Assembly: GCA_965216315.1 (NCBI GenBank)
Contig: CBDCFN010000016.1
Coordinates: 256,001-320,000 of the forward strand
Source of the DNA: a bacterium
GTDB taxonomy: Bacteria > UBA10199 > 2-02-FULL-50-16 > JAJFLM01
Length of the DNA stretch: 64,000 nucleotides
Reading direction: 5' to 3'
The position numbers and the translations under genes were made by a program. Numbering within the stretch: the stretch's first letter is position 1; the number at the start of each line of letters is the position of its first letter. Of the stretch, positions 469 to 62,957 are shown in pieces. Under the pieces are notes generated by a model, which saw only the letters and a list, made by a program, of their open reading frames with translations, was not told where the DNA came from and did not search any database.

Positions 469-493
469 GCAACTTCTTGGCCTCCATGACGAT
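469..493 (+). promoter_or_regulatory. sigma28-like promoter motif GCAAC-N14-GACGAT
   Basis: Matches the motif found upstream of six other orphan genes in this window. Confidence 0.5.
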
Positions 494-540
494 CAACCCG
501 CGACGTTTAATATGGTCTCAGGGGGTTATTGGGGTTAGGT

Positions 541-1926
541 ATGATTCTAGCGAGTACGACGGGCTGGCTGGCACCGGGTTTGCTGCTGGCCGGCGCGTCC
601 CATAACAATTTTTCAGGAGGAGCGGTCGGCATGCAGGCCTCTCCCGTTTCCGGTGCGTCCGCCGTCAGCGAGCCGGCTGTAGCGCCGTCATCTTCAGGCA
701 GCTATGTCCCGCCGGCCGAGCCCAGCCACGTGACACTGCGCGGGAGCGCGAGCCGTGGCGATAGCCGCGTCTTGATCTTTGTCGAATCGTTTTTTGGATT
801 CGGTCATTTTAATATCATCGATCTGTTAGCGAAGGAACTGATTCGACAAGGCCTCGCTGTTGGTGTCGCTTCGAGTACCTTCAATCTGTGCGGTCATTCG
901 TTTGACTTCGGTGGTGCCGAGCAATTCTATCTGCCTCCCCTAGGAGTCAATGCCAAAGGCGAAAGATGTAAACCGAATCAAGAGCGGTTCCGTGATACTG
1001 AAGATGATTATGTAGATACCATCTATGCAGGAACACGACAGGTTCTGGACTCTTTCGAACCGGAACTTGTCGTCTATGAATTGTATCCTTTTATGATGCC
1101 CTGGCGCGATGGCTCTGCGAGGGCCGTCAATGACCACTTTCAGGCCAAGGGTCGGCCTTTGCCCGAGCGGATCTCGCTGTGCCGTGACATTATTCATGCA
1201 AGCAAGCCGTGGAGGGTATTAAAACGGCTCGATACCTATTGCAGTCGGCTCATGATCCGGGGGGATAGCCGTTTTGCGCGCTTGGAAGAAAGTCAAGAAC
1301 ACTGGGCGAAAATAACCCAACCCATCGACTATGTTGGTAACTTTGCGGCGCAAGAGCCCCAACTGACATCGACCGCATTTCAAGATGACATCGTTATCTT
1401 CGGTGGTGGAGGCTATCGCGCGGAAAAAGACACCCGTTTTCTTGAGGCCGTCGCCGGCATTGCGGAATTTACCGAGGCGTACCGGGATAGGTCCTTCAAG
1501 GTAGTACTGGGCGAAGGGACCCCGGATCACGTCGTGGATCAGATGCTCGCAGCGGGCAAGGGAAACACCGAGTTAATGAAGCCCGTGAGTTCCGGTGTCT
1601 TCAAGCAGATGTTGGCGGGAGCTGCCGCTGTCGTGACACGGGCCGGGTATAATACAACTTTTGAATTGGTTCGGATGAAGAAACCCTTTGTCGTCGTGCC
1701 GCGAGAACTTAAAGAACAGCGCTTGCGTGCGACGATGTTAGAACGTAGCGGTTATGGCCGGGTCGTTCGAGAAAGAGATCTCTCCGCTGAGGCGTTGGCC
1801 CGATCTTTAGATACGTGCATCACGCCTATCAATGGTTCCGCCATGCAATTTAAATTTGACGGAGCCGAACGAATGGCCCAATCGTTGGCGGCGTTGTTGG
1901 AGCGATACCGCGAGGCCCGCGTTTAG
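541..1926 (+). CDS. GT-B fold glycosyltransferase (Glyco_tran_28_C-like) with ~70 aa N-terminal extension
   Basis: FFGFGHF N-terminal motif; GGGG and VTRAGYNTTFE...PFVVVPR...EQ C-terminal motifs. ATG at 541, in-frame TTG at 529. Confidence 0.75.
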   Translation: MILASTTGWLAPGLLLAGASHNNFSGGAVGMQASPVSGASAVSEPAVAPSSSGSYVPPAEPSHVTLRGSASRGDSRVLIFVESFFGFGHFNIIDLLAKELIRQGLAVGVASSTFNLCGHSFDFGGAEQFYLPPLGVNAKGERCKPNQERFRDTEDDYVDTIYAGTRQVLDSFEPELVVYELYPFMMPWRDGSARAVNDHFQAKGRPLPERISLCRDIIHASKPWRVLKRLDTYCSRLMIRGDSRFARLEESQEHWAKITQPIDYVGNFAAQEPQLTSTAFQDDIVIFGGGGYRAEKDTRFLEAVAGIAEFTEAYRDRSFKVVLGEGTPDHVVDQMLAAGKGNTELMKPVSSGVFKQMLAGAAAVVTRAGYNTTFELVRMKKPFVVVPRELKEQRLRATMLERSGYGRVVRERDLSAEALARSLDTCITPINGSAMQFKFDGAERMAQSLAALLERYREARV

Positions 1927-1939
1927 TCTACTTAACTTT

Positions 1940-2170
1940 TTATGAATTCAGACAGATATGATGTTCAATTTTATCCATCCGTTCGCAGATGAGGCGGATT
2001 TCTGCCCGCAGGTCAGTACGGACGGCTTTAATTTCGAGTTTCAGTGAGCTTTCCACCGTATCGATCTTATGGTTGAGCTGGTCATAGCCTTCCGCTACGA
2101 CTTCGAGCTTGGTATTCATGTCCTCTAAGAGGATCAGATAACGGTCGGCATTCTTTGACTCGGACATCAT
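1940..2170 (-). CDS. small coiled-coil hypothetical protein
   Basis: MMSESKNADRYLILLEDMNTKLEVVAEG...; heptad pattern. ATG at 2170 preferred over the upstream TTG. Confidence 0.6.
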   Translation of the reverse strand: MMSESKNADRYLILLEDMNTKLEVVAEGYDQLNHKIDTVESSLKLEIKAVRTDLRAEIRLICERMDKIEHHICLNS

Positions 2171-2262
2171 AGGCGTCCTACGTGAGTTGGAGTTTCCTGT
2201 AAAAGCAAAAAGAATGCCCAAAACGGATTTTGCTAAGTCCTTGAAATTAGGAGCGCTGTTCT

Positions 2263-2271
2263 TGTGGATAA
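2263..2271 (-). promoter_or_regulatory. perfect DnaA box (TTATCCACA), with a near-consensus IHF site at 2234-2246
   Basis: TGTGGATAA on + strand, intergenic. TAAGTCCTTGAAA is one mismatch from the IHF consensus. Confidence 0.4.
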
Positions 2272-2474
2272 CAGAGGCGCCGTCCCAAAATAAGACGCGG
2301 GTGCTTCATTTTAGGTCTTTATCCGTAAAGGAATTGTAAAAGTCACTCCCTGGTTTTTACCGACGGTGTCCTATTTTCTCCGCAACCGCGTGGGCAATCT
2401 GAAAGAATGCGTGCTGGATCACTTCCTTCTTTTTCCTATGGTTCCTCATTCCGATCGGTGCCACCGCCTACACG

Positions 2475-61139: not shown

Positions 61140-61595
61140 TTGTCTCAATTAGGCACCCATTTCATCGCCGAGTTCTGGGAATGTCCAGGCGAGGTCTTGA
61201 ACGATCACGATCGTTTACGTGACTTGACTCACGAGGCGGCGATGTCCGCCCGTGTGACTGTGCTTAACAGTCAGTTTCACCAGTTTTCCCCCCATGGGGT
61301 GACTGGAATTCTTCTCTTATCTGAATCCCATTTATCCATTCACACTTGGCCGGAACGTGGTTATTGCGCGACGGATTTATTTACCTGTGGTGATCCCGTC
61401 GCGGCCCGTGATGCCTTGTTGGAGTTGGCCAGTCGCATGGGGGCGGGTCGTGTTGAGCTTCAAACTATCGCCCGCGGGTGTACCGGTGCGATCGCCAACC
61501 TGAGTGTTGAAAGTCGCATCCTCTATCCGCCGTTTCAGTGGACACCGGCGCCGGCGACGCCAGCGCTGCACCGAGCCCATGTCACCGAAGAGTAA
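61140..61595 (+). CDS. speD: S-adenosylmethionine decarboxylase proenzyme
   Basis: HQFSPHGVTG..LLSESHLSIHTWPE..DLFTCG; TTG start with GAGGTGG SD. Confidence 0.93.
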   Translation: MSQLGTHFIAEFWECPGEVLNDHDRLRDLTHEAAMSARVTVLNSQFHQFSPHGVTGILLLSESHLSIHTWPERGYCATDLFTCGDPVAARDALLELASRMGAGRVELQTIARGCTGAIANLSVESRILYPPFQWTPAPATPALHRAHVTEE

Positions 61596-62451
61596 CGAAA
61601 AGACCGTTTATACCGGCTTTGAAGGCGAGCGGAGTGGCTATTACTTCGACGTCCGCGAGACCCTCTTTGATCAGCAGAGTGAGTTTCAGCGGGTCCAGAT
61701 CGTCGACACCTACGATTATGGAAAAATTTTATTGCTTGAAAACGAAGTCATGACGACGGATTGGGACGGTTTCGTCTATCCGGAGATGCTCATGCATCCG
61801 GCCCTGATGAGTCACGCGGCGCCGCAGTCGGTAGCGATCATCGGCGGCGGTGACGGCGGTGCGGTGACCGAGACCTGTCGGCATCCCGATGTCGAATCGG
61901 TGCAGCTCTGCGAAATCGACGAACTGGTCGTGACCGCCTCACGCGAATTCTTTCCCAAGCTGGCCGCCGGGCTCAACGATGAGCGTGCCCGATGCTTTTA
62001 CGAAGAGGGCGGGGCGTGGTTGCAGAAGAATCCCGCGAGCTTCGATGTGTTGGCGGTTGACGGGACGGACCCGATCGGTCCCGGCGTGCAACTCTTTGAA
62101 GAGGCGTTTTATCAAACGTCGTTGGCCGCGTTGAAGCCGGGCGGTATCTTTGTGCAGCAGGTCGAGAGCCCGTTTTATTGTGCGCCGCCTAAAAAGACGG
62201 TCTTTGATTTGAGTTTCCCCGAGATCATCCAACGCGCGCGGGCGGTGTTTCCACGCGTGCACGTCTACACCGCGACGATTCCGCTCTACATCGGTGCGCT
62301 CTGGTCCTTCATGATCGCCGGCGACGAAAACCTGTCGATCGATCCGCGTCCCGAGCGCTGGGAAAAGATCCAGGGCCAGACGCGTTACTACACCCCGGAA
62401 ATTCATCGGGCGGCCTTCGCGCTGCCGGCCTTCGTGCGCGAGTTGATTTAA
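61579..62451 (+). CDS. speE: spermidine synthase
   Basis: SEFQ, IIGGGDGG, CEIDE, DGTDPIGPG, YYTPEIHRAAFALP. Confidence 0.93.
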   Translation: MSPKSNEKTVYTGFEGERSGYYFDVRETLFDQQSEFQRVQIVDTYDYGKILLLENEVMTTDWDGFVYPEMLMHPALMSHAAPQSVAIIGGGDGGAVTETCRHPDVESVQLCEIDELVVTASREFFPKLAAGLNDERARCFYEEGGAWLQKNPASFDVLAVDGTDPIGPGVQLFEEAFYQTSLAALKPGGIFVQQVESPFYCAPPKKTVFDLSFPEIIQRARAVFPRVHVYTATIPLYIGALWSFMIAGDENLSIDPRPERWEKIQGQTRYYTPEIHRAAFALPAFVRELI

Positions 62452-62523
62452 TAACAACTGCAGCTGATATCTCTAATAATTTCAATGTTGTATGCTTAAT
62501 CTCGCTGAGACTCCTGTTTTGTT

Positions 62524-62552
62524 TGAACCAGCTGCGTACGCGCCTCGTCTAA
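62524..62552 (+). promoter_or_regulatory. ECF-sigma-type promoter TGAACC-N16-CGTCTAA
   Basis: Matches ECF GAAC...CGTC/TCTAA architecture; upstream of the His-rich gene. Confidence 0.5.
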
Positions 62553-62572
62553 ATTAAGGTGAGGAGGGAATC

Positions 62573-62806
62573 ATGCCTAAACGGATTATCGCGTCCCTAG
62601 CGGCGGCGTTCATATTGGTCAGCCTGATGGGCTGCTTCGGGATTCGGCATCGGCATCACCGGCATCACTATGGGCACCATCACCACCACGGGCATCACTA
62701 CGTGGGTCACTACCACGGTCGTCATTATCATCGTCATGGCCCCTACTACAAACGCCATCACCATCGGCGCTATCCGTATCGCTACTGGTCGCACCGGCAT
62801 TATTAA
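62573..62806 (+). CDS. small His/Tyr/Arg-rich lipoprotein
   Basis: GAGGAGG SD; lipobox LMGC; mature part mostly H, Y, R and G. Confidence 0.75.
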   Translation: MPKRIIASLAAAFILVSLMGCFGIRHRHHRHHYGHHHHHGHHYVGHYHGRHYHRHGPYYKRHHHRRYPYRYWSHRHY

Positions 62807-62932
62807 GTTGTTGGCGCGGGTGGCGTTCCGAGCCCTTTGGAACGACACAGAAGTCGCAGCCAAAGGGCGAGGGCACGACAGGACCCGCGCACTCACTGCA
62901 TCCATTTGTTATGAAATATTAACGGCCGCTTA

Positions 62933-62957
62933 GCACATTTGTTTCGACCATGCCGAT
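62933..62957 (+). promoter_or_regulatory. sigma28-like motif GCACA-N14-GCCGAT
   Basis: Shared motif; ATG 62968 lies 10 nt after CGAT. Confidence 0.5.

Follow-up and report, generated by a model that had tools for sequence, protein, structure and literature searches.

A divergent sigma-28-type promoter class and its probable reader, a sigma factor encoded in a type III secretion cluster, in an uncultured UBA10199 bacterium

The canonical sigma-28 promoter has the -35 box TAAAG, and the E. coli sigma-28 consensus is written as two 8-mers, TAAAGTTT-N11-GCCGATAA. A 64,000-nucleotide stretch of DNA from an uncultured bacterium of the UBA10199 lineage, henceforth referred to as the window (assembly GCA_965216315.1, contig CBDCFN010000016.1; G000:C16:256001-320000 in the notation used here), carries several sites that resemble this promoter in the -10 half and depart from it in the -35 half. 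The genome, G000, comprises 2.96 Mb in 16 contigs. A preliminary description of the window had listed seven such sites before scattered genes and proposed that a divergent sigma-28-type factor co-expresses them, possibly as a host- or prey-contact programme. The analysis reported here indicates that the sites are most likely promoters of a divergent sigma-28 type, read by a FliA/WhiG-like sigma factor encoded in a secretion cluster and serving about a tenth of the genes.

The closest known case is the FliA attack-phase regulon of Bdellovibrio bacteriovorus, in which TTAAG-N16-CCGATA was found in 92 of 140 mapped promoters of strain HD100 (Karunker et al. 2013, PMC3627812). As far as the available parts of that report extend, the likeness lies in a sigma-28-type promoter placed on a large, mostly non-flagellar gene set, there consisting of surface proteins, proteases and many uncharacterised products. 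Bdellovibrio is, however, flagellated, uses a canonical -35 box, drives its flagellar genes from the same promoters and has had those promoters mapped, whereas the present genome encodes no flagellin, has GCAAC as its -35 box, a changed recognition helix and a sigma gene within a type III cluster, and its regulon is predicted from sequence. The class 3 promoters of E. coli, Salmonella and P. aeruginosa (structures 6PMI and 9WSM, consulted in part) share the -10 core CGATAA, the spacing and the group-3 sigma architecture. They differ in pairing TAAAG with the helix ESRVSQLH, where GCAAC is here paired with KSWTSRLH, no match to the FlgM family is found and no flagellar structural gene is a target. 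A further likeness to the enteric systems would follow if the N-terminal tag described below were a type III signal, since the targets would then be export substrates of a type III gate.

Two other systems bear on parts of the comparison. Sigma-28 is retained by Chlamydia trachomatis, a bacterium with a non-flagellar type III system and no flagellum, and chromatin immunoprecipitation sequencing found it bound at just two promoters, those of hctB and tsp (Rizvi et al. 2025, PMC12282069, in the sections available), compared with some 200-300 predicted here. The chlamydial sigma-28 model NF004572 scored the present sigma factor at 93 bits against a cut-off of 378. In Myxococcus xanthus, a type III system lacking a needle (the needleless T3SS*) is recruited to sites of prey contact and is needed for prey lysis, with effectors unknown (Herrou et al. 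2025, PMC12075869). It resembles the cluster described here in having a sorting platform and an export apparatus, no secretin in the cluster and no recognisable needle or translocon, families that were not searched for specifically in the present genome. The two differ in that no TadE-domain gene (Kil-like minor pilin) was found in G000, G001 or G002, and the word 'sigma' does not occur in PMC12075869. No paper on a sigma-28 gene inside a non-flagellar type III cluster was found in a literature search that left bioRxiv supplements outside its scope and, judged by titles and abstract openings, none of the literature naming UBA10199 concerns promoters or secretion. New in this work are the orphan test, the exclusion of an extracytoplasmic function (ECF) sigma factor as reader, the joint change of recognition helix and -35 box, and an N-terminal tag with family-level spread.

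A promoter class across the genome and its candidate sigma factor

Genes were called by a heuristic procedure (2351 genes), and a 34-column matrix was seeded by a regular expression and refined on all upstream regions of the genome, with the antisense strand as the null. The resulting consensus, cGCAACTTT-N11-GCCGATAA, is made up of c(G/A)CAACTTTT, a non-conserved stretch and GCCGAT(A/G)A. Its -10 half is the sigma-28 box GCCGATAA with C and G as specificity bases (column counts C 136/141, G 141/141, A 141/141, T 107/141, A 97/141 and A 109/141), and its spacing is that of TAAAGTTT-N11-GCCGATAA. At thresholds of at least 16, 12 and 10 bits, 211, 338 and 442 sites were found genome-wide, compared with 10, 64 and 134 in the reversed genome, from which some 200-300 sites are taken to be real; the regulon of seven genes initially proposed is corrected to that size. 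Target status was assigned to 204 of the 2351 called genes, a large and non-flagellar share.

The motif is strongly enriched upstream of genes, on the sense strand and immediately ahead of start codons, a check that the preliminary description had asked for. In sense upstream regions the word it had used reached 2.5 times its genomic frequency, and matches to the regular expression in the 0-19 nt before called starts numbered 44 and 47 per 10-nt bin against approximately 5 elsewhere. The spacer (14 nt in the initial counting) was fixed in 64 of 65 seed sites. CAAC-N16-CGATA occurred 151 times in the genome, compared with 23-63 times for spacers of 14, 15, 17 or 18 and 11 times when read backwards. 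The densest cluster of sites in the genome, with nine targets in 20 kb, lies in G000:C16:2159181-2196937 within paralogous gene arrays (including an MGCDLYGAS... family and a family of ~650 amino acids) in which each gene has its own strong site.

Five genes of the sigma-70 family were identified in the genome: RpoD, RpoH, two of ECF size and exactly one FliA/WhiG-like gene, so that the sigma-28-like factor whose presence had been predicted is indeed encoded, in a genome without flagellin. This gene (C16:350511-351410, 299 amino acids) is located 30 kb beyond the window. Its best family is TIGR02479, matched over model positions 1-222 of 224, and its best solved relatives are WhiG (6PFJ) and FliA (9WSF, 6PMI). 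The recognition helix of region 4.2 reads KSWTSRLH where the solved structures of WhiG and of the FliA proteins from P. aeruginosa and E. coli have ESRVSQ(L/I)H, and SKSW(T/V)SRLH was present at 55 of 56 loci in relatives. The family pairing of a TAAA(G) -35 box with ESRVSQ(L/I)H was therefore not found; c(G/A)CAACTTTT and KSWTSRLH stand in its place. The clade-wide change in the predicted recognition helix matches the clade-wide change in the -35 box.

Both partners are conserved. The sigma gene was present in 41 of 41 genomes of the class, with 52-81% identity in 40 relatives from 20 families, and CAAC-N16-CGATA was enriched in all 41 (37-151 matches compared with 2-22 read backwards). Relatives were sampled in stretches of 274-400 kb, in which the matrix found 27 sites against 0 in G023 (400 kb), 22 against 1 in G002 and 13 against 3 in G003.

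The sigma gene is placed between sctJ on one side and an SctI-like gene, a FliG_C-like gene, sctL and sctN on the other. The cluster as a whole encodes SctV, an SctD-like protein (FHA and YscD domains), SctJ, a FliG_C-like protein, SctL/FliH, SctN, YscO, FliK/HpaP-like and FliM-like proteins, FliN, FliO and FliP/Q/R, together with several proteins that match no Pfam family; SctU is encoded elsewhere. Export gate, ATPase complex and sorting platform are thus present, as in the needleless T3SS*. No secretin gene was found in the cluster, and the only secretin matches in the genome are at C16:974670 and C16:16707. Flagellin_N, Flg_bb_rod and any rod or hook domain were likewise absent from the genome, which is 98% complete, and the late flagellar genes and FlgM that accompany a sigma-28 of the flagellar family were not found. 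In relatives, sctJ, the FliG-like gene, sctL and sctN flank the sigma gene wherever the flanking sequence reaches, and the FliG-like gene follows it at 53 of 56 loci. A 22-bit site lies 11 nt before the GTG of a Peptidase_M23 gene (G000:C16:333913-334929) that adjoins secA upstream of the cluster.

Target genes: orphans, leaderless layout and a common N-terminus

The preliminary description had placed the sites before orphan or atypical genes. Pfam families were sought (E ≤ 1e-5, at least 100 amino acids) for 75 non-paralogous targets and 75 random non-targets from 20 target-rich 20-kb stretches, which were picked for target density and hence are not a random sample. No family was found for 57 of the 75 targets, compared with 18 of the 75 controls (Fisher p = 2e-10), so the motif precedes orphans far more often than other genes. 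The regulon varies between families: in G023 (C3:1-400000) the same promoter was observed ahead of genes for lipoproteins and for small proteins rich in Cys, and most of these had leaders in which the Shine-Dalgarno site was strong, indicating that both content and leaderless habit differ.

Leaderless mRNAs are common in Actinobacteria, Deinococcus and archaea. The layout observed here resembles theirs in that, given the position of the -10 box, the start codon would be the first codon of the transcript, without a Shine-Dalgarno site, and differs in being concentrated in a single alternative-sigma class. The interval between the T of CGAT and the start codon showed peaks at 8, 9, 11 and 12 nt. 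Among 245 sites of at least 14 bits, 59 were located 7-13 nt before a called start, and approximately 22 more had an in-frame ATG 9-12 nt downstream inside an over-called open reading frame; after start correction, 79 of the 204 targets (~39%) have a start codon 6-13 nt past this T. The other genes showed an ordinary Shine-Dalgarno peak at 5-10 nt, sigma-70-like TTGNNN-N16-18-TANNNT boxes were found 233 times in sense and 128 times in antisense, and 1513 other genes starting with ATG displayed only a small TANNNT bump at the leaderless distance. For the sigma-28 complex of E. coli, the positions of the box are given as C-13 G-12 A T A A N-7 (bioRxiv 10.1101/2020.01.02.893370, in the part available). 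By this numbering the T stands at -10, an ATG 9 nt past it begins at +1, and leaders of 0-3 nt are predicted. Transcription starts are accordingly expected ~10 nt after the T of CGAT, instead of the ~7 nt after CGAW first suggested, and the four genes of the window that had been termed near-leaderless would be truly leaderless. For about a third of the targets, leaderless mRNAs are predicted. The same arrangement was observed for 12 of 25 targets in G002 (same family) and 4 of 14 in G003 (same order), and for few in G023 (another family).

Target proteins share an uncharged N-terminus, referred to here as the tag. A charged residue before position 20 was lacking in 102 of 204 targets, compared with 77 of the 2147 remaining genes, which corresponds to an odds ratio of 27 (p = 4e-71). 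The first charged residue had a median position of 19.5 in all 204 targets and 4 in the other genes; in 74 leaderless targets the median was 26, with 70% at position 20 or later, a value reached by 3.6% of the other genes, or 16% when the most favourable start is taken from as many as six alternatives. In composition the tag favours Ala, Leu, Ser, Thr, Asn and Gln, with a three- to five-fold depletion of Asp, Glu, Lys and Arg. At residues 2-25 of leaderless targets, D, E, K and R made up 1.2, 0.9, 1.2 and 2.3% (4.0, 4.9, 6.4 and 5.8% in other genes), S 12.0% (7.3%) and T 8.3% (5.8%). The most hydrophobic 12-residue segment had a median of 1.47 in the tag, compared with 2.68 in the Sec- or lipoprotein-like N-termini of the same genome. 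The tag also follows the promoter: among strong -10 boxes located 8-12 nt before an ATG, it was present in 43 of 50 with a good -35 box and in 5 of 68 without one.

Several sources of the tag were considered and rejected. Paralogy fails because 145 of the 204 targets have no paralogue among the targets. A cause at the nucleotide level, namely avoidance of purines in leaderless 5' ends, disagrees with the enrichment of Asn and Gln, whose codons have A in second position, and with the presence of the tag on targets that have leaders. A peptide addressing proteins to a compartment found no counterpart, as neither a bacterial microcompartment shell gene (PF00936) nor an encapsulin gene (PF04454) was detected in G000, G001 or G002. 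Type III signals occupy the first 20-25 residues, which are rich in Ser and Thr, poor in acidic residues and below Sec hydrophobicity; the tag has this composition and is too little hydrophobic for Sec. These features suggest that the uncharged front end may be a secretion or export tag. Thirteen of the 18 Pfam-positive targets carry it, among them Pkinase, Guanylate_cyc, RelA_SpoT, PFK, RtcB, Response_reg, Aminotran_5, CDO_I, Amidase and Acyltransferase types, with domains that start 24-336 residues into the protein.

Sites and genes in the window

All seven strings of the preliminary description were found exactly at the coordinates it gave, and its four close start codons lie 9-11 nt past the W of CGAW as claimed (Table 1). 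Six of the seven sites share the motif; the site at 62933 does not fit the matrix. At a threshold of 16 bits, six sites were observed in the window (469, 5007, 26671, 41043, 44641 and an intragenic one at 42776) compared with ~0.2 expected per 64 kb, and the loose word CAAC-N16-CGAW occurred 14 times against 6.28 ± 2.55 in 100 shuffles, none of which reached 14. The downstream genes were rightly called orphan or atypical, since four of seven lack any Pfam family at E ≤ 0.001 and the remaining three comprise a sub-threshold HEAT match, a GT28-type glycosyltransferase and an FGE-sulfatase-like protein. The uncharged N-terminus is carried by six of the seven proteins, and by the seventh only if translation begins at ATG 62968.

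Table 1 Predicted sigma-28-type sites of the window and the genes downstream of them (window coordinates).
Feature	Position	Strand	Details
Promoter GCAAC-N14-GACGAT	469..493	+	21.2 bits; leader ~35-47 nt; gene 529/541-1926
Target gene, 461 amino acids	541..1926	+	ATG 541, TTG 529 possible; N-terminus MILASTTGW...; first charged residue 44; Glyco_tran_28_C domain confined to residues 358-435
Promoter GCAAC-N13-GCCGAT	4984..5007	-	25.4 bits; spacer one shorter; ATG 11 nt past T; predicted leaderless
Target gene, 312 amino acids	4034..4972	-	No Pfam family; first charged residue 23
Promoter ACAAC-N14-GTCGAA	26671..26695	+	19.5 bits; ATG 9 nt past W; predicted leaderless
Target gene, 267 amino acids	26705..27508	+	No Pfam family; first charged residue 29
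Weak site GAAAC-N14-ACCGAT	34821..34845	+	10.5 bits; ATG 11 nt past T
Target gene, 630 amino acids	34857..36749	+	No Pfam family; first charged residue 38
Promoter GCAAC-N14-GTCGAA	41043..41067	+	21.6 bits; leader ~16-25 nt
Target gene, 617 amino acids	41093..42946	+	ATG 41093, TTG 41084 possible; no Pfam family; first charged residue 34
Promoter ACAAC-N14-TGCGAT	44617..44641	-	17.0 bits; 24-nt leader with GAGG Shine-Dalgarno word
Target gene, 549 amino acids	42943..44592	-	Sub-threshold HEAT_2 match only; first charged residue 37
Doubtful site GCACA-N14-GCCGAT	62933..62957	+	0.4 bits (-35 part -2.8, -10 part 3.4); ATG 62968 10 nt past T
FGE-sulfatase-like gene, 311 amino acids	62968..63903	+	ATG 62950 also open; from 62968 first charged residue near 29
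Extra candidate site, absent from the initial list	19108..19132	-	13.1 bits; 17 nt with AAGGAG before lipoprotein-like gene 17867-19090

The weak site at 34821 is probably genuine, because the relative G002 encodes a 35%-identical homologue of its gene that is preceded by a 17.5-bit site, starts with an ATG at +9 and has an uncharged N-terminus. Matches to this gene were found in two relatives, at 35% identity only, and no homologue of gene 62968 was found in five relatives (E ≤ 1e-8). With matches of low identity or none for these two genes, conservation of the promoter can be read at one homologue only. Gene 62968 is a doubtful member of the regulon. The 312-residue orphan has a single homologue among 5.8 billion proteins, which is 81% identical and has the same first 23 residues; its best score in the ESM Atlas, 0.76, was uninformative.

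The weaker look-alikes mentioned in the preliminary description held up poorly. No site of at least 8 bits was found upstream of queD (22716-23126, PTPS) and none of at least 6 bits upstream of 31995; only gene 28396 has a candidate, at 28268-28293 with a spacer longer by one, which at 13.6 bits is marginal. None of these three genes carries the uncharged N-terminus. Gene 28396-29247 encodes a helix-turn-helix protein of DUF4423/TIGR02147 type and is followed by two genes of 413 and 414 amino acids without a Pfam family (to 31873). The 910-residue product of 31962-34694 matches Beta_helix, Chlam_PMP and DUF4215 and, read from ATG 31995, begins with a Sec-type signal of the ordinary kind; it lies outside the sigma-28-type class.

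Two further features were observed within the window. The residues MILAST open two unrelated target genes 4.4 kb apart (541-558 and, on the minus strand, 4955-4972), which may be chance within the narrow composition of the tag or a trace of 5'-end exchange. A 16.9-bit match on the minus strand (42752-42776, CGAC for CGAT) is located antisense inside target gene 41084-42946 and represents an antisense promoter or else one of the small number of matches that chance would produce.

Weighing of the readings and their meaning

In the explanation proposed, the holoenzyme would contact the conserved -10 box in nearly the manner of sigma-28, and the changed recognition helix (KSWTSRLH) would read the changed -35 box (GCAAC for TAAAG). 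At 79 of the 204 targets, transcription would start at or within 3 nt of the ATG and yield a leaderless mRNA. The regulon would constitute a programme for secretion or cell contact that is induced along with the secretion machine, following the same logic by which sigma-28 drives late flagellar export substrates and kept after loss of the flagellum. The earlier proposal of a divergent sigma-28-type factor co-expressing scattered non-flagellar genes is supported by the enrichment of the motif, the bias toward orphans and the single FliA/WhiG-like sigma gene in a genome without flagellin.

Chance matches to a short, degenerate word would account for the loose form of the motif, which is expected about six times per window, and for the site at 62933, which scores at chance level, but five sites of 17-25 bits and the independent N-terminal signature in six of seven downstream proteins refute this reading for every site except that one, and as an account of all seven its probability is negligible. 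An ECF (group 4) sigma factor is a more specific candidate. ECF -35 boxes of the GGAACTT or TGCAAC type resemble GCAACTT, the AAC of the -35 box, the CG of the -10 box and the spacer of ~16 nt are all reminiscent of ECF promoters, and the genome has two genes of ~198 amino acids with Sigma70_r2 and r4_2 domains (C16:1659686 and C16:2109985). The extended -10 element, GCCGATAA, is nevertheless the sigma-28 box and not CGTC or CGTA, and the only PF08281 match in ten genomes was the sigma-28-like gene itself. In at least four relatives (96-99% complete) no ECF-size sigma gene was found: G030 and G028 have RpoD, a gene of RpoH size and the sigma-28-like gene only, and G026 and G004 have RpoD and the sigma-28-like gene only. 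CAAC-N16-CGATA is still enriched in G030, G028, G026 and G004 (79 against 8, 57 against 6, 60 against 2 and 103 against 13, respectively), which removes the ECF factors as readers; this candidate is largely refuted and now very improbable. Reading by RpoD or RpoH, or a transcription-factor operator lying beside ordinary promoters, is unlikely, if less remote than an ECF reader. It draws on the divergence of the sigma factor, which falls below the family cut-off, and on transcription starts that are deduced rather than mapped. The motif is, however, orientation-specific, has a spacer of fixed length and lies 8-12 nt from starts, where no room is left for another promoter or a Shine-Dalgarno site, while the rest of the genome shows ordinary sigma-70-like and Shine-Dalgarno signals. 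Moreover, the -10 half equals the sigma-28 box with the C and G that are the specificity bases in E. coli (according to the parts of the structural reports available), and the -35 change is matched by a recognition-helix change that is invariant in the clade.

For the tag, the main rival to a type III signal is an atypical Sec-type signal lacking the positive n-region, or a signal for another route or an intracellular address, in which case the promoters would be real and the regulon would be an envelope or surface programme. This is a substantial possibility. The tag has a weak signal-peptide look, with polar residues after an Ala/Leu-rich stretch at positions 11-20; Sec or lipoprotein signals of the ordinary kind are present on some targets; and the tag is frequent only in the family of the window, whereas the whole class has the secretion cluster. 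The hydrophobicity of the Sec-like signals of the genome is, however, reached by only 1% of tagged N-termini, the lack of microcompartment shell and encapsulin genes in G000, G001 and G002 speaks against an intracellular address, and the tagged proteins include nucleotide-dependent enzymes of cytoplasmic type behind N-terminal extensions, an arrangement that would be odd in the periplasm but is commonly seen in injected effectors. An export signal for the type III machine in the front end, with the tagged orphans as its substrates, is a tentative proposal. It is favoured because of the location of the sigma gene, the flagellar precedent, the signal-like composition, the cytoplasm-type enzymes with long N-terminal extensions and the presence of two strong sites right after sctT in the cluster. 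These two sites, of 22-23 bits, precede genes of 717 and 491 amino acids without a Pfam family (G000:C16:360590-364413), the first of which is leaderless in layout and tagged; both are candidates for machine-associated substrates.

A number of observations weigh against the explanation as a whole. Promoter activity, transcription starts and leaderlessness are all predicted from the DNA, and the gene calls and start choices behind them are crude. The sigma factor scores below the curated TIGR02479 cut-off (133 against 189.6 bits), and several residues that contact the -10 element in E. coli are not conserved in the alignment (R94, R95 and R98 become Y, A and K); the CGAT core is nonetheless retained. 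The assignment of the motif to this sigma factor comes from elimination and co-conservation, with both partners present in every sampled genome. Upstream of the sigma gene the matrix detected no site of the class, and no member of the FlgM family was matched in this 98% complete genome, so that the checkpoint logic of flagellar systems is left without support; a non-homologous anti-sigma factor is possible. The tag, moreover, is not class-wide, being found in 13 of 25 targets in G002, 4 of 23 in G023 and 0 of 14 in G003. Its concentration in the family of the window argues against a universal type III signal, which would be expected wherever the machine is, and the type III substrate reading is further weakened by the absence of the tag from the likely early substrate of the cluster, the 162-residue SctI-like protein, and by the lack of a recognised outer-membrane channel.

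Taken at its broadest, the type III substrate reading would describe a flagellum-derived, secretin-less machine that kept the sigma-28 rule and exchanged flagellin for about a hundred fast-evolving tagged proteins, kinases, cyclases and RelA/SpoT-like enzymes included. With the uncharged front end of 25 residues as their export signal, these would be the effectors of a needleless, T3SS*-type apparatus for cell contact in predation or parasitism, of which Myxococcus provides the single case studied. This picture is put forward as a possibility, and a doubtful one. A host- or prey-contact programme, as raised in the preliminary description, is a conjecture that gains some weight from the position of the sigma gene inside a type III cluster and from the common N-terminal tag.

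For an uncultured phylum, the promoter class provides a readable regulatory code, in which one promoter word marks approximately a tenth of the genes. It would represent a flagellar sigma factor that has outlived the flagellum, its recognition helix having changed in step with the -35 box. It also defines a set of ~100-200 orphan proteins with a common front end, in a genome whose sigma gene sits in a seemingly needleless type III cluster. If these orphans are indeed substrates, the set predicts the cargo of such machines and would suggest that the lineage lives by predation or parasitism.

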